Source: an uncultured Bdellovibrionales bacterium
GTDB taxonomy: Bacteria; Patescibacteriota; Minisyncoccia; Moranbacterales; GWC2-37-73
Length of the DNA: 64,000 nt
NCBI GenBank assembly: GCA_964500125.1
Contig: CAZCMV010000004.1
Span: 7,010 to 71,009 of the forward strand
Direction: 5' to 3'
Both the position numbers and the translations under genes were made by a program. The notes beneath the pieces are model-generated. The model worked only from the letters and a program-made list of their open reading frames with translations, did not search any database and was not told the origin of the DNA. This document shows positions 292 to 47,377 of this stretch, one piece after another (positions within the stretch are counted from its first letter, which is position 1; every line of letters begins with the position of its first letter).

Positions 292-375
292 GCCGCGGTG
301 GCGGAATTGGTAGACGCACTGGACTCAAAATCCAGCGATAGCAATATCATGAGAGTTCGAGTCTCTCTCGCGGTA
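292..375 (+). tRNA. tRNA-Leu (anticodon CAA), type II tRNA with long variable arm
   Basis: Acceptor GCCGCGG pairs with TCGCGGT (two terminal G-U). D-arm GCGG-AATTGGTAGA-CGC. Anticodon stem-loop CTGGA-CTCAAAA-TCCAG with anticodon CAA. Variable arm about 16 nt. T-arm GAGAG-TTCGAGT-CTCTC. Discriminator A. No encoded CCA. Confidence 0.85.
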
Positions 376-383
376 CTTAAATC

Positions 384-416
384 AAAAAGTCAGCTATTTA
401 TAGTTGACTTTTTGAT
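384..416 (+). terminator. Hairpin plus T-run just downstream of tRNA-Leu
   Basis: AAAAAGTCAGCTAT-TT-ATAGTTGACTTTTT; stem has one G-U and is followed by TTTTTGATTTT. Confidence 0.6.
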
Positions 417-507
417 TTTATCACCATGCAGACTCGAACCAGGAAAAGGGTCGGGAAAAACTAGGTTTTCCTGTGAAGGAAAGAATTGAAAACCGTGGGT
501 TTTCAAA

Positions 508-556
508 GAGCTCCGACTATAAATCGGAGCAAGTGAGATGTCTCTCCCGCGGTACA
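508..556 (+). other. Degenerate direct copy of the 3' half of tRNA-Leu (anticodon-arm-like hairpin, collapsed T-arm, acceptor 3' strand)
   Basis: GAGCTCCGA-CTATAAA-TCGGAGC hairpin followed by GAGATGTCTCTCCCGCGGTAC. Compare the tRNA 3' end GAGAGTTCGAGTCTCTCTCGCGGTAC. The T-loop is missing, so this is not a functional tRNA. Confidence 0.5.
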
Positions 557-634
557 AAAGATAAGCAATTTCACTTTTTTATATAGTGAGGTTTTTTTTA
601 TTTACTATATTTTATTCGTAATTTAAAATTAGCA

Positions 635-1870
635 TCACATTAAATAAAAAAACGCGGTGGACAGTTGTCCAACGCGTCTTATTTTAATTCTGTCCCCGCC
701 GACGTTTCCCTTATAGTCGACAAAAGGGGATTTCTGGAGGTTCCGAGTGAACCGTACCCAAGCAACGCTGTGCACGGTTATTTCCGCTCCCTTACCAATG
801 TGTTGCCACGGACCATCCCCAATCATGATGATCAGGGAAGCGAAGGGAGCCGAAGGGACAAATAGCTCCGACTGCGTGCTAACCTCCTTTCCTATCACGC
901 CTTCCGGACCGATGTGCACCCTTTTTCCCCCAGGATTTTGGTACTTGAAGTCGCTGCCAGTAGCAACGACTTCATATTTTCCCGGTTCAAGGGTTGTTCC
1001 TGGATCCTCTCCATAGAGATATGACCCTTGAATTTTAATCGGCCTCGGCGGGTCGTTTTTTTGCAACTCCCCCGCCTTCCTATCCAGCTCTATTTTCCGC
1101 TGGATATCAGCCGCCCTATCATGGGAGGTTTTAGCATCCCTCCAATCCCATCTTATTTTTCTCGATGGGACATAACCGGTGTTCCCCTTAATGAAATCAC
1201 CGATTTCGTTGGGAATCATTACCCGGACTAAGCCCTCAGAATCAGGCTGCGCCGGTACTCCTCTGAGATCCAATGCGCGAACCAATGTTCCTTGAGAAAG
1301 CTTTCGGAAAGGATTACCATTTTGGTTATATACCCAAGTTTCCTCGGGCAAAAAACCCAATATCTCGGATTCAGCTTCCGATTGCAGAGATCTCTTGTCG
1401 AGGCTGTTGGCCACAGTTTGTTTTCCATCTTTATGCCAACGATCGAAACTGCTTTTTACAGCAGGCGACCAAATTCCAACAAGCAGGAAAATTACAGCAA
1501 TTGCCAGGATTGGAGAAAAAACATACCTCACAACCTTAATGACCGGACCAAGAATCCAGACCCTGCTCGCGATTGGTGGCATAATGAAAGCCAAGAACCA
1601 AATCGGAAACAGGACGAGAATAGCAATGGAGCATCCGATAGCATGAGCATAAGCACCCAATCCTATTATAAGAACAGCTAATATCAACCAACCCAAGAAA
1701 AATACGCCAACGGCAATAAGAATGACGTTTCCTATTGCAGGCCAAACTGTTCTGAATGTGCCTGCAGCCAAATATGCGCTACCCGCTATAATATTAGCGA
1801 TTTCCGCGCGAAAATATACGGCCACAGCTACCAATACTGCAATTATTACTAGAAGTAACAATCCACTCAT
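635..1870 (-). CDS. Hypothetical membrane protein: about 4 N-terminal TM helices plus a ~270-aa soluble C-terminal domain; GC-rich relative to surroundings
   Basis: 411-aa ORF. Hydrophobic N-terminus (LLLLVIIAVLVAVAVYF...). GC visibly higher than flanks (about 48% against about 35%). Its ATG overlaps the stop of the upstream gene by 4 nt (1867-1870). Confidence 0.6.
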   Translation of the reverse strand: MSGLLLLVIIAVLVAVAVYFRAEIANIIAGSAYLAAGTFRTVWPAIGNVILIAVGVFFLGWLILAVLIIGLGAYAHAIGCSIAILVLFPIWFLAFIMPPIASRVWILGPVIKVVRYVFSPILAIAVIFLLVGIWSPAVKSSFDRWHKDGKQTVANSLDKRSLQSEAESEILGFLPEETWVYNQNGNPFRKLSQGTLVRALDLRGVPAQPDSEGLVRVMIPNEIGDFIKGNTGYVPSRKIRWDWRDAKTSHDRAADIQRKIELDRKAGELQKNDPPRPIKIQGSYLYGEDPGTTLEPGKYEVVATGSDFKYQNPGGKRVHIGPEGVIGKEVSTQSELFVPSAPFASLIIMIGDGPWQHIGKGAEITVHSVAWVRFTRNLQKSPFVDYKGNVGGDRIKIRRVGQLSTAFFYLM

Positions 1871-2604
1871 TTTTTGCCTCCTTTGGATTTTTCGTAGAAA
1901 GCTTTCGCTCTCTCCTTGAATGATTTACAATCATCAGAAAAACTCAAGCGTTCCTCTTTAGCTTGAGAAATTATTCCCTTGATGGTGTCAACAAACTTGC
2001 CTTTCCCATCAGAAAAAATTTCTTTCATTTTTTGAGAGAATTGACTTTCCGCCTTTTTTTCTTTCACTAAAGAAAAAACATTTTTTCCTTGCAGAAAAGC
2101 GACGCGAACCTGAAATGTTTCCTCAGCGTCAGCTCCGGTCTTCCTAAGCAGAGATTCGAGAAAGTTTTTAGCATGACCAATACCCTCCTGAATGCTTTTA
2201 TATGCTTGCTCGATTTTTGGATCAGAGCTGCCTTTAGGCGGGTTGACCGTTTCTTTGATGTCTCGTTCGAACCTCATAACCATCTTTGCTACATAGAGAA
2301 CGAGAGCTTCCGCCTTCTCCTTATCTTCGCGACGAAGACGGGCCTCAAGAGCGTCCATTTCATCTTCCTTTGTCATATCATTCAGGGCATTTACAACTAT
2401 GCCATAAATGATTTCGTCGGAGACATCCTTCTTGGCTTTTTCCAAATCAAAACCAAGAATTTTTTCCACCCTCTCATGGATTTTTTCCGCCCCCTTCTCG
2501 CCAATCTTATCAAAAACCTTCTTGATAATGATTCCAAAAACAGGAATAGCTGTTAATGCCGTAATCCAACGATCGAGTTTCTCCGCAAATGTGGTAATTG
2601 TCAT
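1867..2604 (-). CDS. Hypothetical protein, one N-terminal TM then a charged coiled-coil region; co-transcribed with the 635-1870 gene
   Basis: Start chosen at MTITTFAEKL (ATG 2604-2602) because GGAGGTG sits 5 nt upstream. The ORF track's longer start has no SD. 4-nt overlap with the downstream gene. Confidence 0.55.
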   Translation of the reverse strand: MTITTFAEKLDRWITALTAIPVFGIIIKKVFDKIGEKGAEKIHERVEKILGFDLEKAKKDVSDEIIYGIVVNALNDMTKEDEMDALEARLRREDKEKAEALVLYVAKMVMRFERDIKETVNPPKGSSDPKIEQAYKSIQEGIGHAKNFLESLLRKTGADAEETFQVRVAFLQGKNVFSLVKEKKAESQFSQKMKEIFSDGKGKFVDTIKGIISQAKEERLSFSDDCKSFKERAKAFYEKSKGGKK

Positions 2605-2796
2605 AACACACCTCCATATTGATTGAGTTTTCAAAGGACAATTCCTTTGTTTTACAGATTTGCATCTGCAACGGTCTATTTTAGCATAAATTAACCAAAA
2701 AGTCAATAGCAGGGCGGTTTTTGGCTATTTTTAGCGTCAAATTGGCATGAGAAATTTGGAAGCTTCACACATATTACATTAAATACGAATAAGACA

Positions 2797-2930
2797 TGTC
2801 ATTCTGAGCGAGTGCCGAACTTTCCCAGTTCGGCACGAAGTGAAAAATCCCGTAATAAGCATACGAGTTACCCGAGATCCTTCATTGCACTCCTCCGACA
2901 TATGTCGAAGCTCGCTTGCTCAGGATGACA
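2797..2930. mobile_element. MITE-like palindromic element, copy 1 (terminal inverted repeats TGTCATTCTGAGC...GCTCAGGATGACA; internal perfect hairpin GCCGAACT-TTCCC-AGTTCGGC)
   Basis: 134-bp intergenic element. Its ends are reverse complements of each other and match the ends of the copy at 8181-8255. Both copies share an internal CGAGATCCT. Confidence 0.55.
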
Positions 2931-2935
2931 AATAC

Positions 2936-2966
2936 AAAAAGAGCAGGCTCATCGCCCGCTCTTTAT
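2936..2966 (-). terminator. Hairpin terminator downstream of the 3031-4167 gene
   Basis: AAGAGCAGG-CTCATCG-CCCGCTCTT flanked by A/T runs. Confidence 0.5.
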
Positions 2967-3030
2967 AAAATGCTCTTGTGTTCTTTACATCAATTCATAT
3001 ATTCGTATCAATTCGTATTTCGTAGGGATT

Positions 3031-4638: not shown

Positions 4639-4892
4639 ATTTTTACGAATTTTACATCATTTTTTTCATAGACTTTTTTCATTTCTTCCACCTCTTCGCA
4701 ATAGTCGCTTTTCTTGTGTCCATAAACCACGACAATACCGCATGCATTTCTGAACTTATCAATAGAATAAACTATACCTCCCTTTTCTAAATTTTCACTA
4801 AAAGATAAAACATTTAACCTCAATTGAGCCAATTTTATTTTTACTGCAAGATCGAACTCCTTTTTGAAACATAAAACCAAAACGTTTTTCAC
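4635..4892 (-). CDS. Hypothetical small protein (85 aa)
   Basis: ORF with 4-nt overlap to the downstream ORF. Confidence 0.4.
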   Translation of the reverse strand: MKNVLVLCFKKEFDLAVKIKLAQLRLNVLSFSENLEKGGIVYSIDKFRNACGIVVVYGHKKSDYCEEVEEMKKVYEKNDVKFVKI

Positions 4893-5024: not shown

Positions 5025-5498
5025 CTACTCGATGGTCATAAATTCGATCTCATCCTTGTTTTCAGTCAATCTTGCATAAACTAACACAACTTCTTTTTCT
5101 TTTTCCGAATATTTTTTATTAATTGCATCTTTGGCTTTTTTGAGTTCCATTTCGTGAAAAGCTTGCTCGGCATCTTTGTCACCATCAAACTTGCCACTGC
5201 CACCATATGCACCACAATCTTCATGATTTACGATCACAACTTTCTTGGCATGATGCAAATCGCAAGGAACACTTATGCAAGACATAGCCAGCTCACCATC
5301 CTTCACGCATTCATTGATAGCTTTTGCGCTACCAGGAAGAGATGGGAAATCAAAGGTTGTCAGTTTCAATTCTTTTTCGATAAACTCAAGCGTTTCCCGC
5401 CAGAAGCGAAAGTCGATACAAGTCAATACAACCGCTTCACAATTATGAATGTTTTTGAATTTAAATGGAATTTTCATATTGGTAAAATCAAAAATCAA
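5025..5498 (-). CDS. Small protein with beta-carbonic-anhydrase-like zinc motifs (CxDxR ... HxxCG)
   Basis: TCIDFRF at aa 27-32 and VNHEDCGAYGG at aa 88-98. The spacing is about 60 aa, as in beta-CA ligand sets. The protein is short at 157 aa. Confidence 0.35.
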   Translation of the reverse strand: MIFDFTNMKIPFKFKNIHNCEAVVLTCIDFRFWRETLEFIEKELKLTTFDFPSLPGSAKAINECVKDGELAMSCISVPCDLHHAKKVVIVNHEDCGAYGGSGKFDGDKDAEQAFHEMELKKAKDAINKKYSEKEKEVVLVYARLTENKDEIEFMTIE

Positions 5499-5610
5499 AA
5501 TGCAAAAATCAAAATGTCAATGCAAAATGAAAAAATAATAATTCTTTTTGCATTTTAATCTGCCATTTTGCATTTTGAGATTTGCATTTTGCATTATCTC
5601 AAATTATCAA

Positions 5611-6051
5611 CTAATCGATTTTGATATTACGCTTCGTCCTATGTTTTCTCGCTACTCTAATACGTGCAGTTTCTTTTTCAATTGCCGCAGCCACGCGTGC
5701 ATATTCTATGTCGTCCATTGTAACTTTTTCCTTCTTAAGTTCTTCAGCTCGCTTGCGCGCTTCTTCTGCACGGGTAATGTCAATTTCTTCAGCAGACTCA
5801 GCTGTATCAGCCAGCACAACCAAAGCATTGTCGTTAAATTCGATAAATCCACCTGACGTAGCCATTAAAGTTTCCTTACCCTCTATTCTTAGCATTATTT
5901 CGCCAGCCTTAAGCGAAGCAATATAGCTTCGATGATTTGGCAAAATTGTCACTTCTCCATCAGTAACAGGCAGTGTTGCCTGATCGATTTCAGATTCGAA
6001 GACAGTTTTTTCAGGAGTAACTATTTTAAATTTAATTTTAATTGAAGACAT
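5611..6051 (-). CDS. atpC: F1 ATP synthase epsilon subunit
   Basis: 146 aa. Beta-sandwich N-terminus (VTPEKTVFESEIDQATLPVTDGEVTILPNH) and helical C-terminus. Last gene of the atp operon. Confidence 0.85.
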   Translation of the reverse strand: MSSIKIKFKIVTPEKTVFESEIDQATLPVTDGEVTILPNHRSYIASLKAGEIMLRIEGKETLMATSGGFIEFNDNALVVLADTAESAEEIDITRAEEARKRAEELKKEKVTMDDIEYARVAAAIEKETARIRVARKHRTKRNIKID

Positions 6052-6207
6052 AAATATTGCTTTAAAATCCTAATGTCAAAATCCTAATGTCAAAATCCTA
6101 ATTTCCAATAAATGACTCGATGACCAAATTCTATTTTTAGATATTTTGATTTAGTATTTTATTTGATATTAGTCATTAGGATTTAGAATTTGCGAAGTTA
6201 AAAAATC
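6052..6207. repeat. Intercistronic palindromic repeat element (AAATCCTAATGTCAAA x3 ... GTCATTAGGATTT), atpD-atpC spacer
   Basis: Three tandem copies of AAATCCTAATGTCAAA, with the inverted partner TAGTCATTAGGATTTAGAATTT about 90 nt later. Confidence 0.7.
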
Positions 6208-7740
<1,533 letters not shown>

Positions 7741-8180: not shown

Positions 8181-8255
8181 TGTCATTCCGAACTTGTTTC
8201 GGAATCTAGAGGAGCATGCAACCCTTCGAGATCCTGAAACAAGCTCAGAATGACA
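8181..8255. mobile_element. MITE-like palindromic element, copy 2 (TGTCATTCCGAAC...GCTCAGAATGACA; internal hairpin ATTCCGAA-CTTG-TTTCGGAAT)
   Basis: The reverse complement of its 3' end (TGTCATTCTGAGC) is identical to the 5' end of copy 1 at 2797. Shared internal CGAGATCCT. Confidence 0.55.
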
Positions 8256-8372
8256 CATTATTATCTTTTCATTTTACATTGTCATTTTGCTCCGCCAATT
8301 GGCGGATTGATTTTTGCATTTTGCATTCATAAATTCGAGTCATTCGAGTGCCCATTCGTAAATTAGAGTCGC

Positions 8373-39931: not shown

Positions 39932-42900
39932 CTATTTATTAACCCACTTAAAAATATCAAAGAAATTGTTAATAATTATTTGAACAATATTCTCTTTGGT
40001 TTTTGGTGTAAGTAAGGCATAATCAGAGGAAATAGCCACGTTATCTGAAGCATCCGTCGATTTTGCCCTGAAATAATATACTGATCCTTGGTTAAAAGAA
40101 GTAAGCACAACTACATGTTGTTGCGAAAGCACTTCGGAAAAAACTAATTCCTTATCTTCACCATTTTTTCCGTCACGATATATAATTGCACTTGTTGCTG
40201 GTTCATCAGTTTTCCAGCTTACAATTGATTGAACCTTCTCGTTTTGAGCCAATGCGGACTCTGTTTTTACCTGGTCGATTATTGGCGCACTCGTATCCTT
40301 TCCGGTAACAAATGTCTTCTCTTCCGAAACAGTCTCTAGGCCATTTTCATCGCGAGCTGTAACAGTGTAGACATAAGTCAAGCCAGATTCCAGATCATTA
40401 AGTTCTATTTGTTGTTTTTTTGCAAGATTAGGATTGCCTTTGCTTTGGGCTTCTTTTTCTTTCTTTGAATCTTGGTAATTTACTGTAGCAACAATCGGAA
40501 CATCTGATGAGAATGTTATAGTTGCCGAATGTTCAGAAACATGCACGGCCTGCAAATCGTTTATTTTTGGCGGCGATTTCGGTTCAAAAGTTGAATCAGC
40601 AGAAGTATAAATATTGCCATCAGAATCGGTTCCCTTGATTCGGAAATGATATATGGACCCACCCTTAAGCCCTGACAACTCCACACGATGATCTTTGGCT
40701 AGAGAACTTTGTTCTATTTCTGAACCATATTTTGTAGAAATTCCATATTCCAAATATGTATCAGTTGGCATTTGTGTAAGCCACACCACGGTAGCCCTGC
40801 CAATCTCTTTTGATTCCAAAACTATTGAAGATATTATTGAAGTTCCATCAGTTGTAAAAGAATTTTGTGAAGATTTGCCAATGTTGCCTTGAGCATCCAG
40901 GGACATGGCTTCGAAATAATATTTGGTTCCAGGCGCTAACCTATCCAAGGAAACCTCATGATTTTGGGTATATTTTGCAATATCCGAATTGGTATCATCA
41001 TCACCTATCATCTTTCCATAAATGGAACTCGTGCCAAAACGAACCATGCTGTTCGCATTTTCATTGGTATCCCAAGAAATCACCACGTTTTCACTTGATA
41101 TTGATTTTACGGAAACATTACTGATTGATGGTGCTACACGGTCCACATTTTCTCCGCTCTCAACCTCACTTTCTCCTATTTGTTTTTCCAATGTTGTGAA
41201 ACTTAATTCATCAGACATTAGTATAGTGTCTAAATTATCCAAGCAAGTAATGCGATAATGGTATTGTGTTTTATATATTAAACCTGAAAGATGAATTGAA
41301 TGATTGGAATTGAATGATGCTTCACCGACAGGCACTTCATTATATTGACCTAATTGTGTGCCATATTCAATAAAACATTGGGCTCTTTGGTCTGTAGAGA
41401 AATTAATAACTGCCTTTGTGTCAGTTAGGACCGCAGGAGGATTGGAAATATTACCAATATCTCCAAGTGGATCATGATTAAGTTCCGGATCGGATAAAGT
41501 TGTAAATACTTGTTCCTCTGTTTCCGAACTATTGCCATATTCATCAATCGAAACAGCCTTAAAATAATATTTCTGGCCGCCTACAAGTCCGGAAAGTGAA
41601 ACTACGTGTACATCTGAATTTATTTGGTCATTATAGTTATTAAGCAAATCGTGATCAATGCCATAATTTACCCTGGTAGAAGTACGCTTGTCTGTTTTCC
41701 ATGATATCACAGCATTATTGTCTGTTATGCTAAGTACTTCCAAATCGAAAATTTCCGGATCGGAAGTATCTGCGATAGTTGTTAATGTTTGATCAGCAGA
41801 ATAGGAGATATTATTCAGATTGTCTGTTGAACTTATTTGATAATGATAGGTTGTTTCCGGCTTCAATTCATCAAGATCAACGGAATGAATATTTATTGAT
41901 TCGTTGCGATTACCGGCAATCATTGAATAATCAACTGTTTCACCATAATTAACCAGCGAGTTCGAATTCTCGTCTGTCATCCAAGTTATTTTTGCACTGT
42001 CTTTGGTTATATTCGTTGATGATATAGCGCTTATTTCCGGTCCAAAACTATCTGGCAAGTTGATAGTTGTGAAAGTATAATCACCTGAAACATTTTCCAC
42101 TTCATCTGTCGAACGCACACGAAAATGATAGGTCGTACCAGGCAACAATCCCTCTAGGGTGACAGAATGCGCTGTATTATCATCCAATTTACCAAATACT
42201 GCTCCATAATCAGTGTTTAAACCGTATTCAACAAAAGACGTTGCTGCTAGGTCCGTATTCCAAGAAACAGTCGTGCGATGTTCATCAAGATTCAATGAGG
42301 ATAACGAACTGATCACCGGCGGCACTGGTCCAGGAGCTGTTGCTCTCTGATAATATGAACCTGAATTATTATCCGTCGCCTTATTTCCAGAAGCATCGGC
42401 AGAAGAAATTCTCAACAAATACACAGTGCCCGGAGTAAGCCCGGAAAGGGTCACACTATGGAATGTTGATAGCACGGAAAACCCTTGCTCTGAAAAAGTA
42501 TTTCCACCATCGCTGGAATATCCAACATATGAATTGGAAGCTTCATCAGTATTCCAAGTAACCGTTACTGAATCCCTTGTTGGCGTACCAATGTTTATAT
42601 TTGCAATTATTGGCGCCGTGCTATCCGCAGGATTGACCGTTGTTGTAAATGTATTATCATCGGAAACAGCTTCATTATATAATCCGTCGGAAGATCTCAC
42701 TCTGAAATGATATGCCTGTTCCGAGGACAAGTCGTATGGCAACTGAACCGTATGATTTTTTACAGCATTATTATCACCATAAATTCTTCCATAGGAAACT
42801 GTCTGACCATATTCTACATAAGAAGTGGCGTCTTCGTCTGTTGTCCAAGTTATTGTCGCACTATTAAATGAGGGAGTTGAAGATAAATTGCTAATTTGCG

Positions 42901-45900
42901 GAGGAGTCACATCTTCACTTGTCAAAGTAACGAACTGATCCTGAGCCGATATTGCTTCATTATTAGCAGCATCTTTGGAGTGAATTTTGAAATAATAGGT
43001 TACACCCTGTTCAAGGGAAGGGACTATAATACTATGGTTTGTAACCATGTTTCCGTCGCCATATTGGGCGCCAGTTGAAAAACCATTTGTTTTTGAATAT
43101 TCAATAAATGAAGTCGCTGCTTCATCTGTATTCCAAGTTATTGTTGCAGTTGAAGATGTAGTTCCAGCCACAACAATGTCTGATATTGAAGGGGCTGTGT
43201 TGTCACCAGCAGAAGTAATGAAAGTATATCCGTTGCCTCCATTAGTATCCACGGCTAAAGCATTGGATGCATTCGCGGACTTTGCCTGAAAATAATATTG
43301 CGTATTTGGAGTGAGTCCGTTCAAAACAACACTATGAGAAGTTACCATTGTACCTGAGCCAATTTCATTTTCAAAGTGTGCCGGTTGCACAGAAAACCCA
43401 ACAATAGAAGAAGATAGCACGTCTGTTGTCCAATTTATCTGCACACTGTTTGCTGTTATATTATCAATGTTTACATCGGAAATTACAGGGGATTGTTCAC
43501 CCGACCCTCCACCACCTTCCCCAGCATCCTTTATTCCATTAGCCACTCCACTGACCACAGAAGAAGAATATGAAACATTATTTTCAGTATCTACAGACAC
43601 CACACGATAATAATAATTAACATCACCCTCGACAGAATTATCTCCATAATAATTAGTAAGCCTATTATTTATTGTTTCGATATGAGTCCAGTCTGTCTGA
43701 TTTTCAGAACGATAAATATGATAAGCTTCAAAACCAGCAACGGGAGCAATGATAGTTTTCCAAGCAATAAATAAACGAAATTCACTCAGGCCGTCATACA
43801 AATTTGAAGTATCTTGAATCATCATCGCACCTGGCTGTTCCGGAGTGGTTGCTGAAATAATTTCAGAAAAATTATTAAAACCATCCTTAAACTGAACATA
43901 GACCACGTCAGGATTTTCAGCTAGAGCAATGTTTTTAGTAGCAGCATAATCTTCCCATGAAGATCCAGCCAGATCACTATTAAGTGAAACTTTCATTTGC
44001 AAAGAACTGTCATCTGTTAACATTAAATGTGCCACAGCTGGAATACTTGAAGCATCCACAGTTGCAGGAATAACTCCCAGTATTGGATCTTTTGTGTCCA
44101 CAATGGGAACAATAATATTCCCATAGGTAATATTATTAGCACCTTCTCCATCGTTTACCTTGACCCTTATTTTTAGGTCAGTCAGATATTGATTTGCATA
44201 ATCTTGTTTTATATTCCATTTTAATTGATGTTCTGTCCAATTAACTTCGTCCACCGAAACGCCAGCACCAACATCGCCAGTTAGGCTAATAGCATCCACC
44301 CAAGTTTCACTTCCTTGAGTTGAACAATTAGACTTACAATATTGTAAGCTAACATTAACATTTTCTTGCGTAGCACCTGTTGATGTATCAGCATCACGTA
44401 CTTCATAATCAACAGCAATCAAACCATCCGAACCTTGTGAAGCTGAAATATTTTGGATTTCAGGAGAAGCATTAACAACATACATCACATCCACTGATTC
44501 CAAAATAGGCGTATAGGCGGTATTTCTACTTGATAAATTAATTTCATATTGTATCCATTGGTCATTATTACTATCCATTACCAAAGCAGGCATTGCTTCA
44601 TTTCCATTATTATCTGTAAAGTACGATGTCGAAGTTCCATCCGGTCCAATCCAATCAGTCCAGTTTGTCCCATCAGAAGAGGTTCTGATGCGGAAAAGAA
44701 TTTCCGTTTCCGCAGATAAATTTTCCACCCATTGCAATTTTGCCAATACATTATTCAAATCTCCAGTATTATAAGCGGAGGATCGCAACCTGGAATAATC
44801 CTTTATGTAATCAACGGTTATCCTATCCAAAAAAGGACTCGAATCACCATCGGAAGAATAAAAACTTGCAGCAAAATCAAGCGTATCAGTTTCAACAGTG
44901 AATCCTCCAGAAGCATTCCACTGCGAAAAACCAAGGTTTTGGATGATATCCCCCTCCATTCCAACTGTCGCAACATTACTTAGTTCAGTTGCTATCCAGG
45001 ATGATCCATCCCAATATTTCCATGTATTTCTATTATCAAAAGAAACCAAATATCTTATTGAGGTTAAATCTGGAATATCTTGATTTAACGACACCTTTTC
45101 TATGCCATTCCATTGCGTTGTAGACAATTGAGAAGTAGCATTGGTTGTTACGTAAAAATGCTGATCAGTAGTATATGCAACTGTCTGCTTGTTATCTGAA
45201 ATTGGCACAATATTGCCTGAAGCATCAGTTATTCTTACATAATCGATTCCCAGCTGTCCCATACCAGAAGCTTTAGCATCTTCAAACTCCAAATACACGG
45301 CCTGTCCTCTAGCCGAGCTGATATCATACGTCTCATCATACATGTTATTGGTTGTGTAACCGCCATACATGTTTGTCTCCCAAACAACAGAATTATCAGA
45401 TGCTTTTCTTAATCGCGACCATGTCTTCTCGTTCCCATTTGCCCTTCTCCTTATTTTTAGATAACTGGCGTTTTGCGGAATATCCAATATCGAAGAATAC
45501 TTCAGCACGCCCACAGGATTGTCACCTATCCAAGCGCAGTATGTGCCTTCAGTATTCCCCTCGCAACCAGATATCCCCCAAGAAGCTGAGGCTGTCCATT
45601 CCTGCATAGTGCCAAGCTCAAAATTATAGTTGACTAAATTTGAATAAGTACCTGATAATTTAACGCCACTATTTAAAAAATCCGTACCTGCTGCCTCATT
45701 TTCCTGAATAAAATCACTTTCATTAGTAAAATAAATATTTTCCGTTCCTACTATGTCATAAAAATAATAATTGAAAGACATATCATTCAGTGTTGGTGAA
45801 ATAGCATTATCCGAAGTAGATAAATTAGCTCGATATTGAACATATCTATTGCCATTCAGGGAAGGTATGCCTCCTCCATTTACAATTCCCGTTTGCCAAG

Positions 45901-47377
45901 AAGTCCAGCTTTCATCCGGAACCATAGTATTTCCTGCACGCACATCGACAGTAAGTGTTGTATTCACCGGCGTAGTTGCGTTAAATACAAGCGTAGAGAA
46001 ACTAGATTTTTGGCCAACGTCAATAATGTTTGACGTAAAAGATCCGGAAGAAAAATAACTAGATACGCTGGTCCCAAAAGAAATTTCTGGTTCAGATGAA
46101 GAAGTTTTTCTTAACAATATTTTTCCCGGATAATTTAAGGTTGCATAGCCACGACTATATAAATCAGCTATTTCATCTGGGGATAAATTTCTGGAAAATA
46201 TCATAACCTCATCAATTTGACCATTGAATGGATGTGGATTGCCACCAATTTCAAATGAACTTGTATTAAGAACATTTTTCAAGGCACCCGAAGAAACAGC
46301 TACGCCATCAATATACAAAGTGCCAGTCGTATCATACTTAACAGCAGCATAATGATGCCATTGGCCGTCTTTAACAGACGTTGATCCGCAAACATTAGAA
46401 TACCCTCCTGAATATGTCATTATGCAAGGAAAACCTTCGTTGTTTATATTGAAACGAATTTCATAGTTTCCAGTACTATCTCTCTGCGATACAATTTCTT
46501 CATAATAATCAGTTGTTTTAAACCAACCAGAAACGGTATAATTAACATTTCCCTCCAATTCGTTTATTTTTGTTGCAAATGTCACTGGGGAATAATTGAA
46601 ACTACGAGCATTTCCATATTTTCCGGGCACAATTGATGAGCTTGTTGTGCCATTATAATTATTACCAGACATGTCATTTACCGCGGTACCGCTTGCTTCA
46701 TCCATAGAAAAAATAGCGCGTGCATTGGAAATTTCCCTAATAAAAACATCATTTATGTTACTTTGACTCTCCAGAGATAAATTTCCATAGTTAAAATATA
46801 CTGTTGTGCCACCGACAGGAATCAATGGCAATTTAATCCAAATCTTTGTTGCTACCGAATTAATCCCAGATTCTATCCAATAAGGCAAAGGAGAAATACC
46901 ATCAGTATCATAAAACCTGATGTCTCCGCCGTCACTACGCATGTTTCCCTGAGAAATAAGCTCTTGGGTATTAATATTCAGACTTACCTGAAAATCAGTC
47001 AAGTCCGCACCGGAAGCATTGGAGATTAAAACAGGCAAACGATATTCTTGGGAATCCAAAACCAATCCAGCATCAATACCTTCTCCAAAAATTATTGCGT
47101 TAGAATTAGTCCCGGAATTAAAATCAGTATCGCTCGTCTGCGTTTTCAACCCAAATGATTCTTGCAATTTTATTTCCGAACCAGCACTAACAATTTCATC
47201 TTTACTTTGATATTCATTCCAATCGCTTTGATTTCCAGGATGTTGAGCATTATTAGTGGTTCCCCCGCCAACCCATGATGACTGAGTGAATATATAAGTT
47301 GCACCTTGAATGCCATTGCTTCGAAATAACAAAATCAACATTAACAAAAAACTAACCAAAAAAACCGTCGCTTTCAA
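39932..47377 (-). CDS. Giant (2481-aa) secreted/surface protein: signal peptide, LamG/concanavalin-like domain, beta-rich region, about 15 tandem FN3-like repeats, hydrophobic C-terminus
   Basis: N-terminal signal MKATVFLVSFLLMLILLF. LamG-like block (...NYNGTT...DEVMIFSRNLSPDEIADLY). Repeated W-TDE-ATS-VEYG...H-V-L-GL-P-T-YHFRV-S-D units. Confidence 0.8.
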   Translation of the reverse strand: MKATVFLVSFLLMLILLFRSNGIQGATYIFTQSSWVGGGTTNNAQHPGNQSDWNEYQSKDEIVSAGSEIKLQESFGLKTQTSDTDFNSGTNSNAIIFGEGIDAGLVLDSQEYRLPVLISNASGADLTDFQVSLNINTQELISQGNMRSDGGDIRFYDTDGISPLPYWIESGINSVATKIWIKLPLIPVGGTTVYFNYGNLSLESQSNINDVFIREISNARAIFSMDEASGTAVNDMSGNNYNGTTSSSIVPGKYGNARSFNYSPVTFATKINELEGNVNYTVSGWFKTTDYYEEIVSQRDSTGNYEIRFNINNEGFPCIMTYSGGYSNVCGSTSVKDGQWHHYAAVKYDTTGTLYIDGVAVSSGALKNVLNTSSFEIGGNPHPFNGQIDEVMIFSRNLSPDEIADLYSRGYATLNYPGKILLRKTSSSEPEISFGTSVSSYFSSGSFTSNIIDVGQKSSFSTLVFNATTPVNTTLTVDVRAGNTMVPDESWTSWQTGIVNGGGIPSLNGNRYVQYRANLSTSDNAISPTLNDMSFNYYFYDIVGTENIYFTNESDFIQENEAAGTDFLNSGVKLSGTYSNLVNYNFELGTMQEWTASASWGISGCEGNTEGTYCAWIGDNPVGVLKYSSILDIPQNASYLKIRRRANGNEKTWSRLRKASDNSVVWETNMYGGYTTNNMYDETYDISSARGQAVYLEFEDAKASGMGQLGIDYVRITDASGNIVPISDNKQTVAYTTDQHFYVTTNATSQLSTTQWNGIEKVSLNQDIPDLTSIRYLVSFDNRNTWKYWDGSSWIATELSNVATVGMEGDIIQNLGFSQWNASGGFTVETDTLDFAASFYSSDGDSSPFLDRITVDYIKDYSRLRSSAYNTGDLNNVLAKLQWVENLSAETEILFRIRTSSDGTNWTDWIGPDGTSTSYFTDNNGNEAMPALVMDSNNDQWIQYEINLSSRNTAYTPILESVDVMYVVNASPEIQNISASQGSDGLIAVDYEVRDADTSTGATQENVNVSLQYCKSNCSTQGSETWVDAISLTGDVGAGVSVDEVNWTEHQLKWNIKQDYANQYLTDLKIRVKVNDGEGANNITYGNIIVPIVDTKDPILGVIPATVDASSIPAVAHLMLTDDSSLQMKVSLNSDLAGSSWEDYAATKNIALAENPDVVYVQFKDGFNNFSEIISATTPEQPGAMMIQDTSNLYDGLSEFRLFIAWKTIIAPVAGFEAYHIYRSENQTDWTHIETINNRLTNYYGDNSVEGDVNYYYRVVSVDTENNVSYSSSVVSGVANGIKDAGEGGGGSGEQSPVISDVNIDNITANSVQINWTTDVLSSSIVGFSVQPAHFENEIGSGTMVTSHSVVLNGLTPNTQYYFQAKSANASNALAVDTNGGNGYTFITSAGDNTAPSISDIVVAGTTSSTATITWNTDEAATSFIEYSKTNGFSTGAQYGDGNMVTNHSIIVPSLEQGVTYYFKIHSKDAANNEAISAQDQFVTLTSEDVTPPQISNLSSTPSFNSATITWTTDEDATSYVEYGQTVSYGRIYGDNNAVKNHTVQLPYDLSSEQAYHFRVRSSDGLYNEAVSDDNTFTTTVNPADSTAPIIANINIGTPTRDSVTVTWNTDEASNSYVGYSSDGGNTFSEQGFSVLSTFHSVTLSGLTPGTVYLLRISSADASGNKATDNNSGSYYQRATAPGPVPPVISSLSSLNLDEHRTTVSWNTDLAATSFVEYGLNTDYGAVFGKLDDNTAHSVTLEGLLPGTTYHFRVRSTDEVENVSGDYTFTTINLPDSFGPEISAISSTNITKDSAKITWMTDENSNSLVNYGETVDYSMIAGNRNESINIHSVDLDELKPETTYHYQISSTDNLNNISYSADQTLTTIADTSDPEIFDLEVLSITDNNAVISWKTDKRTSTRVNYGIDHDLLNNYNDQINSDVHVVSLSGLVGGQKYYFKAVSIDEYGNSSETEEQVFTTLSDPELNHDPLGDIGNISNPPAVLTDTKAVINFSTDQRAQCFIEYGTQLGQYNEVPVGEASFNSNHSIHLSGLIYKTQYHYRITCLDNLDTILMSDELSFTTLEKQIGESEVESGENVDRVAPSISNVSVKSISSENVVISWDTNENANSMVRFGTSSIYGKMIGDDDTNSDIAKYTQNHEVSLDRLAPGTKYYFEAMSLDAQGNIGKSSQNSFTTDGTSIISSIVLESKEIGRATVVWLTQMPTDTYLEYGISTKYGSEIEQSSLAKDHRVELSGLKGGSIYHFRIKGTDSDGNIYTSADSTFEPKSPPKINDLQAVHVSEHSATITFSSDVPIVATVNYQDSKKEKEAQSKGNPNLAKKQQIELNDLESGLTYVYTVTARDENGLETVSEEKTFVTGKDTSAPIIDQVKTESALAQNEKVQSIVSWKTDEPATSAIIYRDGKNGEDKELVFSEVLSQQHVVVLTSFNQGSVYYFRAKSTDASDNVAISSDYALLTPKTKENIVQIIINNFFDIFKWVNK

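Follow-up and report, generated by a model that had tools for sequence, protein, structure and literature searches.

A copy of the tRNA-Leu(CAA) 3' end in Patescibacteria belongs to a conserved structured element and is probably not the border of an island that carries the neighbouring operon

In the genomic islands that tyrosine integrases insert into tRNA genes, as set out in the Islander source (PMC4383910), the inserted DNA is flanked on one side by the regenerated tRNA and on the other by the displaced fragment. The locus described here, found in a 64-kb stretch of patescibacterial DNA (hereafter the window), shares with these islands an intact tRNA gene, tRNA-Leu(CAA), a direct repeat of its 3' end and variable adjacent DNA; it differs from them in that the interval between tRNA and fragment is 163 nt long (377-539), in that the genes, two in number, lie outside this interval and beyond the copy, in having no integrase or distal repeat, and in that the fragment is under purifying selection within a larger structured unit. 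The tycheposon islands of Prochlorococcus (10.1101/2020.12.28.424599) are similar in occurring in a streamlined host, in forming a flexible region at one tRNA, in the presence of partial tRNA copies and in that most single islands have no integrase. The present locus departs from them in that no element with an integrase or a replication module was found at the tRNA in any relative, and the only swap seen is an intragenic recombination.

A functional RNA is known from the corresponding part of a tRNA transcript in E. coli, where 3'ETS-leuZ, the excised 53-nt trailer of a tRNA-Leu transcript, acts as a sponge of small RNAs (Lalaouna 2015, summarised in PMC8166272). The element considered here would likewise be a functional RNA derived from the 3' trailer of a tRNA-Leu transcript; set against the summarised account of 3'ETS-leuZ, its sequence is unrelated, it measures 130 nt, and it has three hairpins and a copy of the tRNA end. 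Modules resembling tRNAs also occur in several non-tRNA RNAs, namely tmRNA, the bacterial Y-RNA-like YrlA, mascRNA and the viral TLS. With these the element shares a partial mimic of the acceptor and T stem, and in two lineages an armless cloverleaf can be drawn from 64 nt of it (492-555); however, the T loop is deleted here, the anticodon is not conserved, and the sequence matches no Rfam family.

In the window, tRNA-Leu(CAA) occupies positions 292-375/376 of the + strand and lacks an encoded CCA; that it is intact at 292-375, as a preliminary description of this DNA had stated, was borne out by ARAGORN and by Rfam (RF00005, 54.9 bits, E 2.8e-10). A sigma-70-type promoter of the tRNA (218-246, + strand; TTGACA, 17 nt, TATCAT; 11/12 consensus positions) forms a block that is kept in the related contigs L001, L009, L134 and L141; a search of metagenome contigs with the promoter pattern gave no match, though L001, a JGI contig, carries the promoter. 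The gene parA adjoins the tRNA, and this position is kept in L001, L009 and L134-141.

The 3' end of the tRNA, GTCTCTCTCGCGGTAC at 361-376, recurs as GTCTCTCCCGCGGTAC at 540-555 (15/16 identical); no other match with 3 or fewer mismatches occurs in the 64 kb, where 0.08 are expected by chance. TGAGA stands 5' of both copies, so that the second one reads as a T arm minus its loop followed by the acceptor 3' strand; in full it spans 21 nt of the + strand (535-555; GAGAT-GTCTCTCCCGCGGTAC), comprising the T stem with the loop deleted, the acceptor 3' strand, the discriminator and the next base. The copied 3' end tracks the tRNA of each genome; in L141 the tRNA has GGCAC and the copy AGCAC. The duplication that the preliminary description had placed at 508-556 is therefore real and not a product of chance, but the segment is part of a larger conserved unit (427-558). 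Similarly, the hairpin that had been compared with an anticodon arm, GCTCCGA-CTATAAA-TCGGAGC, is present at 510-530, but its loop differs between lineages, being CTATAAA, CGGAAGG or part of a short GAAA hairpin, and no anticodon loop is thus under constraint.

The larger unit is a structured element of about 130 nt on the + strand (427-558), represented by the covariance model R1, which contains three hairpins (helix 1, 440-447/466-473; helix 2, 486-494/498-506; helix 3, 510-516/524-530) and ends in the tRNA copy. The model scores 162 bits in the window, 158 bits in L001 and 125 bits in L141-144, a third Moranbacteria lineage, and has no further match in the 316 kb searched. When the element of the window is aligned globally with that of L001, 112/127 bases agree (about 88%; within the aligned core, about 90%), while for the same pair atpD shows 82% nucleotide identity, 4-fold sites are saturated at only 37-50% identity, and the flanks of the element are unalignable on both sides. 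The conservation of the element is above the neutral level, and the tRNA copy, which lies within it, is not decaying. Pairing also appears to be maintained: 98.5% of the cells pair on the + strand, with 4 pairs changed on both sides, compared with 93.9% on the - strand. All 8 pairs of helix 1 are kept through 3 double changes and 2 G-U changes, helix 3 shows 1 double change and is variable in length, and helix 2 and the 3' tail are invariant. In a shuffle test, with 3 distinct sequences only, the observed value was reached by 5 of 500 shuffles; the covariation rests on 4 pairs in these sequences, which are too few for statistical weight.

Searches of Rfam 15 over the element returned chance-level matches alone, well below the gathering scores. 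No tRNA was found over 427-558 by Rfam at E<=10, and none by standard ARAGORN even at lowered thresholds. The armless mitochondrial mode of ARAGORN calls a tRNA at 492-555 (64 nt) in the window and in L001, with anticodons that differ, and makes no call in L141, where there are two acceptor mismatches; a second, armless tRNA was rejected on these grounds. At its 5' end (430-439) the element reads AGACTCGAAC, the antisense of the tRNA T loop (355-364). This match is a perfect 10 nt in the window and L001 and 9/11, with an internal 2-nt mismatch, in L141, so that L141 weakens the antisense match as well as the armless-tRNA shape. Two other candidates were tried and rejected: a lone CRISPR repeat at 465-492 (Rfam E 0.38 in a 264-nt search, less than half the gathering score), and a parS reading of the helix 2 palindrome, which is unlike canonical parS (no canonical parS occurs in the window). 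Whole-transcript folds pairing the tRNA 5' end with the element tail were not used as evidence, the z-score in L141 being only -1.5; alternative folds of tRNA and element arise because the duplicated CCGCGG is self-complementary, a trivial outcome.

It is very improbable that the element is conserved because it codes for a small protein, either from a 55-codon ORF on the - strand (390-557) or from a 16-codon ORF on the + strand beginning at TTG 486. The - strand frame runs through the element without a stop codon in the window and in L001, where it would give similar peptides, and a purine-rich sequence (AAGGAAAG/GGAGGAAAG) precedes TTG 486; however, a strand rich in purines can be expected to leave a frame open on its pyrimidine-rich complement, the - strand TTG has no SD, and the differences between the window and L001 are mostly non-synonymous in the - strand frame. 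In L141, 7-nt and 1-nt indels split the peptide over three frames and the + strand ORF alters its frame and length, and the coding reading was rejected on these frame shifts.

Three distinct versions of the element are present in 9 assemblies, always just 3' of tRNA-Leu(CAA) and on the tRNA strand. In L141-144 the element lies directly behind the tRNA and the two-gene cassette is absent; in L136, of a fourth lineage, the cassette is present and the element absent. The close relatives L134-136, which have the same tRNA type, lack the element, which is therefore dispensable, and a repeat-bounded unit of about 180 nt is precisely missing from L134 and L136, where the tRNA is intact. Wider searches added little: the central pattern of the element had no match in genome-contig or viral-contig collections, three further scans and a phage BLAST found neither repeat nor element in viral contigs, the tRNA anticodon-arm pattern proved too generic in genome contigs (120 loci in many phyla, with one CPR locus that lacks the element), and a protein-based metagenome scan returned one distant locus.

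The clean presence or absence of the unit beside an intact tRNA, the direct repeats of the tRNA 3' end that bound it in all three lineages, and the variable region adjoining it in the window and L001 would also suit a site that acts at the DNA level. The element would then be a minimal integrative remnant (attL, arms and attR, CIME-like) or a secondary attachment site that has been retained. Its conservation would stem from related mobile elements that use the site or recently deposited it, and its hairpins would be inverted repeats bound by proteins; the size of the element matches that of attP arms. We consider this unlikely, since the double changes that keep pairing and the tolerance of G-U pairs on one strand fit an RNA better, and no recombinase lies nearby and no viral matches were obtained. 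Moreover, the element has diverged roughly in step with the adjacent tRNA (about 3 versus 10 differences in the tRNA, about 13-15 versus 30 in the element), which fits vertical descent.

The interval from the Pro_CA_2 gene to tRNA-Leu/parA is variable in related Moranbacteria, with six gene-content states: it is empty in L137, holds one small ORF and a partial tRNA-Leu copy in L138-140, DUF4349 and the genes for the 245-aa and 411-aa proteins in the window, L001 and L009, and Band_7 with a gene for a 279-aa protein in L134. The copy in L138-140 is a second, independent one, located after the tRNA and extending from the anticodon loop onward (28/33). The two-gene cassette is found at conserved synteny in at least four related contigs (L001, L009, L010 and L136) and is absent in others, and the same gene pair also occurs in other contexts in L004 and L013. 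L134 and L136 have an identical ParA and share a C-terminal 162 aa that is 98% identical, whereas the N-terminal halves and the partner genes are unrelated; the breakpoint of this swap lies inside the large gene and not at the tRNA. A variable membrane-gene region beside the tRNA is supported by these data. An integrase island delimited by the tRNA-end repeat is not. No integrase domain was found in the ORFs from 292 to about 5000, as the preliminary description had noted, or in their counterparts at the related loci inspected, and a third copy of the tRNA-Leu 3' end, around 2600-3000 or beyond, is absent from the 64-kb window, so that none bounds the two-gene cassette. With so short an interval, the genes outside it and no third copy, the reading of the repeat as a tyrosine-integrase scar is not supported, and an island that carries the two-gene operon would not have its border at the tRNA copy.

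The composition of the region points both ways. The cassette had been described as GC-rich (42-48% against about 35%), which is correct for the 411-aa gene (46.9%, the highest of 45 ORFs, z about 2.9) but not for the 245-aa gene, whose GC content of 40.5% is ordinary beside a window mean of 38.4%; the DUF4349 gene is likewise not foreign-looking. The 411-aa gene is also the most atypical of the 45 ORFs in codon usage (z -3.45) and contains the most deviant tetranucleotide tile. Its orthologues are, however, equally GC-rich in every host, and the same two genes occur at tRNA-Leu in relatives, an outcome that the preliminary description had named as one that would refute the island reading.

A looser form of that reading supposes that elements repeatedly entered and left tRNA-Leu(CAA), leaving behind partial tRNA copies and stranded cargo (DUF4349, 245 and 411) and having since lost the integrase and the distal repeat. 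Such a history is documented for the tycheposon islands of Prochlorococcus, most of which are without an element (10.1101/2020.12.28.424599), and it would account for the six gene-content states, one of them empty, for the independent copy in L138-140, for the atypical 411 gene and for the precise absence of the repeat-bounded unit from L134/L136. It nevertheless seems rather unlikely here, given that no integrase, phage or ICE gene is present at the site in the related loci examined, that the 64 kb hold no further tRNA fragment, that the copy and the 110 nt upstream of it are under constraint rather than decaying, and that the viral-contig scans for repeat and element were empty. High GC is found throughout the 411 family, in every host, and the sole strain-level swap, which breaks inside a gene, points to homologous recombination.

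The two overlapping genes of the preliminary description, at 635-1870 and 1867-2604, were recovered on the - strand. The ORF at 1867-2604 encodes a protein of 245 aa in which an N-terminal TM helix precedes a long helical region; the gene has an SD (GGAGG) 8 nt before its ATG and overlaps the 411-aa gene by 4 nt (ATGA), an arrangement by which the two genes are predicted to be translationally coupled. The 411-aa membrane protein (635-1870) has about 4 TM helices, an SH3-like, beta-rich conserved middle (about 170-245) and a variable C-terminal beta domain encoded by GC-rich sequence (about 266-411). A promoter-like site with an extended -10 is located at 2678-2706 (- strand; TTGACT, 17 nt, TG-TAAAAT; 10/12 positions), and a terminator hairpin at about 645-680 overlaps the 3' end of the 411-aa gene. 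In L010, about 100 nt of the region upstream of the operon stand in front of a different membrane-protein gene. Profile searches, which had been proposed for both proteins, gave homologues but no family: 142 representatives in 1.84e9 proteins were obtained for the 411-aa protein, with a common core at profile positions 1-250, and 11 homologues in 5.8e9 proteins for the 245-aa protein, while Pfam, NCBIfam and PADLOC had nothing above cutoff for either. The AF2 models of both are poor (pLDDT 54.7 and 52.7), that of the 411-aa protein being used for secondary structure only, and no PDB structure was matched below E 0.2 when the 245-aa model was searched with Foldseek. In operons of SPFH (Band 7) and NfeD proteins, the gene for a membrane-anchored helical protein precedes that for a multi-TM protein which carries a beta domain. 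The present operon resembles them in its overlapping two-gene layout, and in L134 the partner gene is a Band_7 gene; however, the 245-aa protein aligns with the L134 Band_7 protein at an hhalign probability of 0.4%, and neither the 411-aa nor the 279-aa protein has an NfeD match.

The arrangement that we favour, at about even probability, comprises three separate parts: tRNA-Leu(CAA), a conserved tRNA-derived structured trailer, and a convergent, self-contained operon. The element probably arose from a degenerate tRNA duplicate, 492-555 being still drawable as an armless tRNA, and would since have been kept by selection and inherited with the tRNA rather than with the neighbouring genes. Its most likely mode of expression would be as the trailer of the tRNA-Leu transcript, from which normal tRNA 3' processing would split it, its own end being set at a weak hairpin followed by T8 (570-599, + strand). 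This terminator-like end of the tRNA-element unit was read from the sequence and is missing from the output of a simple terminator scan; a hairpin and T-run follow the element in all three lineages (window, L001 and L141), and in L141 the terminator is strong. The product may be a stable small structured RNA, whose strand and ends we infer from the G-U patterns and the terminators, and its tRNA-like 3' end could allow recognition of a tRNA-type end or competition with tRNA-Leu for a partner. The operon, which brings its own promoter, SD and terminator as well as the ATGA coupling, would constitute a clade-specific envelope module in a strain-variable region, re-assorted among strains by recombination inside the larger gene.

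The spacing between tRNA and element varies among the lineages. In L141 the two are separated by an 11-nt spacer, with no hairpin between them and the terminator after the element, whereas a hairpin with T-runs separates them in the window and in L001. In the window this is an AT-rich 19-bp hairpin with T-runs on both strands (379-418, inverted repeat I8, strand unassigned), which may be terminator-like or a processing hairpin, and in L001 an unrelated hairpin takes its place. The hairpin with T-runs, in L001 as well as here, could stop transcription before a trailer RNA is made, and a promoter scan found no separate promoter for the element. Other possible sources of the conservation are a site that acts at the level of the DNA and descent from a related mobile element.

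A more specific role for the trailer RNA, that of a mimic or antagonist of tRNA-Leu produced from its own trailer and tuning tRNA-Leu supply in a CPR bacterium of reduced genome, is doubtful. It would draw on the 3' tail, identical to the acceptor 3' strand, and on the 5' end, antisense to the T arm in two lineages; such an RNA would rival the tRNA-Leu(CAA) precursor or alter its fold, or else would sequester an enzyme that binds tRNA ends (RNase Z or P, the CCA-adding enzyme or LeuRS).

Direct repeats of tRNA 3' ends are customarily taken for integration scars. At this locus, comparison with relatives makes it perhaps an even chance that the repeat was instead kept by selection within a small structured element that goes with the tRNA, in which case the customary reading would misplace the borders of an island. 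If the element acts as an RNA, a tRNA-derived trailer RNA in Patescibacteria would join the very few functional tRNA-trailer RNAs known, and the adjacent operon would mark a strain-variable envelope locus in bacteria of the episymbiotic type, in which surface variation is likely to matter.

The intact tRNA-Leu(CAA) (292-375/376, + strand), on which ARAGORN and Rfam agree, is served by a near-consensus promoter (TTGACA-17-TATCAT, 218-246), and its 3' end, GTCTCTCTCGCGGTAC (361-376), is repeated as GTCTCTCCCGCGGTAC at 540-555. No other match with at most three mismatches occurs in the whole 64 kb (0.08 expected by chance). TGAGA precedes both copies, so that the second corresponds to a T arm that lacks its loop and continues into the acceptor 3' strand. 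A small GGCT...AGCC hairpin just 5' of the tRNA (259-274), kept in the window and in the related loci L001, L009, L134 and L141, is read by a terminator scan as a - strand terminator. The preliminary description had rightly recognized the tRNA, its partial direct repeat and a hairpin (510-530), which it likened to an anticodon arm, and had interpreted the repeat as the scar of a possible, decayed tyrosine-integrase island with two GC-rich genes as cargo. In the standard definition (PMC4383910), an integrated island has the regenerated tRNA on one side and the displaced fragment on the other, whereas here only 163 nt separate the two and the genes are outside this interval. No further tRNA-Leu 3'-end fragment that could bound them was found in 64 kb, and, as already described, no integrase was found in the ORFs of 292 to about 5000, nor in the related loci examined. 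Since the fragment, moreover, is under selection, this specific island model is unsupported.

The copy ends a conserved, hairpin-rich element (427-558, + strand), which in L001 (~128 nt, AGACTCGAACC to CGCGGTAC) is ~88-90% identical to the window. Between these two genomes the post-tRNA hairpin and the DNA past the copy are unalignable, 4-fold sites are saturated (37-50% identical) and atpD DNA is 82% identical. In L141-144, which represent a further Moranbacteria species in four assemblies, a third version lies 11 nt past tRNA-Leu(CAA), followed by a strong terminator and with no cassette nearby. A covariance model of these versions, the three distinct element sequences obtained, scores 125-162 bits on them and, in the rest of the 316 kb of related loci, gives weak hits to tRNAs only; an Rfam search with the element returned no family match. 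The related loci L134-136 carry the same tRNA type without the element, and L136 retains the two-gene cassette; element and cassette, each occurring without the other (in L141-144 and L136, respectively), are therefore independent. In two lineages a hairpin with T-runs lies between tRNA and element. All pairs of helix 1 (440-447/466-473) survive three double changes and two G-U changes; in helix 2 (486-494/498-506) a single mismatch is the only variation. Helix 3 (510-516/524-530) shows one double change, and in L141 it is reduced to a short GAAA hairpin. Pairing cells amount to 98.5% on the + strand and 93.9% on the - strand, where G-U pairs turn into A-C; with three sequences, the three-helix + strand structure is suggestive only. 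A coding role was considered and rejected, as indels in L141 break the peptide over three frames.

The copied 3' end tracks its own tRNA, with GGTAC in the window and L001, and AGCAC in L141, whose tRNA has GGCAC. For 492-555, ARAGORN's armless mode gives a reduced cloverleaf in both the window and L001, with unrelated anticodons, and makes no call in L141. The element is likely to derive from a degenerate tRNA duplicate, arisen by tandem duplication or an old integration. Our preferred account, given about an even chance, is that the element forms a conserved and structured 3' trailer of the tRNA-Leu transcript, derived from the tRNA itself: a putative RNA beside an unrelated variable membrane operon. 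It would resemble in kind the 3'ETS-leuZ RNA of E. coli (as summarised in PMC8166272). A different trailer in L138-140 holds an independent 28/33 tRNA copy from the anticodon loop onward, and the trailer of tRNA-Leu(CAA) is evidently a settling place for tRNA-derived and selfish sequences. The L138 trailer (4716-4873, also in L139 and L140) is ~160 nt long with a folding z of -4.1, its copy covering the stretch from the anticodon loop to the variable arm, and has a T-arm-like hairpin of different sequence. In L009 a free-standing LAGLIDADG_3 homing-endonuclease-like ORF (5983-6531, tRNA strand) begins ~20 nt past tRNA-Leu(CAA), where the element lies in others. A 23S rRNA intervening-sequence protein gene is located between tRNA-Leu and parA in L001 (9725-10147), and PDDEXK_3 genes occur in L001 (3661-4119 and 16047-16451) and L145 (5886-6254); both types are small, selfish-type genes found in some relatives only, in otherwise syntenic intergenic gaps.

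The two overlapping genes of the operon were found as described, on the - strand: the 245-aa gene (1867-2604), preceded by a Shine-Dalgarno sequence, shares an ATGA overlap with the 411-aa gene (635-1870), and the operon has a promoter-like site (2706-2678) and a terminator hairpin (about 645-680). Their reported GC richness holds for the 411-aa gene (46.9%, top of 45 ORFs, against a window mean of 38.4%) and fails for the 245-aa gene (40.5%), which like DUF4349 is of ordinary composition. In synonymous codon use, too, the 411-aa gene is the most atypical of the ORFs (z -3.45), and of all tiles its tetranucleotides deviate most; its GC excess lies in the last two thirds (codons 266-411, GC 50.7% and GC3 53.4%; GC3 36.7% in the TM part). 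Its orthologues are equally GC-rich (44.5-46.5%) across hosts with a local GC of 34.8% to 42.6%, hence high GC is a family trait, which looks most foreign in the window's genome, a lower-GC host.

Other repeats and ORFs were noted in the window. A 138-nt imperfect palindrome between the 245-aa gene and DUF4349 (2795-2932, GTCATTCTGAGCGAG ... CTTGCTCAGGATGAC; folding z about -7 on either strand) has a shorter relative at 8183-8257, with ends GTCATTC...GAATGAC, and the two look like a MITE- or REP-like repeat. Direct repeats of ~120 nt, 86-93% identical and carrying internal AAATCCTAAT/ATTAGGATTT inverted repeats, lie on both sides (6061-6203 and 7620-7737) of the ATP synthase beta gene (6208-7578); an inverted repeat of AAAATCAAAATGCAAAA-type motifs (5476-5597, 56-nt arms, 71% complementary) separates Pro_CA_2 from atpC, and a single ORF of 2481 aa occupies 39932-47377 (- strand).

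Homologues proved very scarce, a search of 5.8e9 sequences returning 5 for the 411-aa protein and 11 for the 245-aa protein; the named ones, and the nearest ParA proteins, belong to Candidatus Moranbacteria. A profile search gave 142 cluster representatives with the first ~250 positions in common and diverse C-terminal ends; predicted structures of the cassette proteins were too poor for comparing folds. Scans of public collections did not reach the relevant genomes. L001, L009 and L010 retain the order ATP synthase, epsilon, Pro_CA_2, small ORFs, DUF4349, 245-like, 411-like, which in the first two runs on via tRNA-Leu(CAA) into parA; the L010 contig stops short of the tRNA, and L136 has the series end only (242+420 aa, tRNA, parA). 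The presence of the same gene pair at this tRNA in L001, L009 and L136 speaks against the integrase-island reading. In other relatives, anchored on ParA, Pro_CA_2 is directly followed by the tRNA (L137), or the place is taken by a single ORF of 153/169 aa (L138-140), Band_7 and a 279-aa protein (L134/L135) or HAD and YkuD genes (L141-144), so the tRNA-distal side of tRNA-Leu is variable in this clade. A looser form of the island reading, a flexible region growing beside the tRNA as described for tycheposon islands (10.1101/2020.12.28.424599), is still a live rival, though the less probable one. Pairs of a 245-like and a 4-TM/SH3-like gene also occur at other sites in the more distant genomes L004 (44% over residues 6-246) and L013.

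Within the operon, L134 (172-1952, Band_7+279 aa) and L136 (102-2089, 242+420 aa), with identical ParA and near-identical tRNA flanks, have in common only the terminator and the last 162 codons of the large gene beside the tRNA (98% identical residues), everything upstream, partner gene included, being unrelated. Similarly, the large proteins of the window and L010 share the C-terminal domain alone (80%), and the upstream region of the operon is found again in L010 before another membrane-protein gene. This recurring stretch, some 100 nt of promoter and leader (window 2604-2705), is at L010 6355-6630, 3' of a 428-aa gene and before a TM-protein start, which suggests tandem cassettes. Between the window and L001, the 411, DUF4349 and 245 proteins are 53-68% identical and atpD 94%; divergence is far quicker in the cassette proteins than in housekeeping ones. 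Such divergence and swaps point to recombination rather than insertion at the tRNA, and are the pattern of an envelope locus that diversifies quickly and is reshuffled through homologous recombination.
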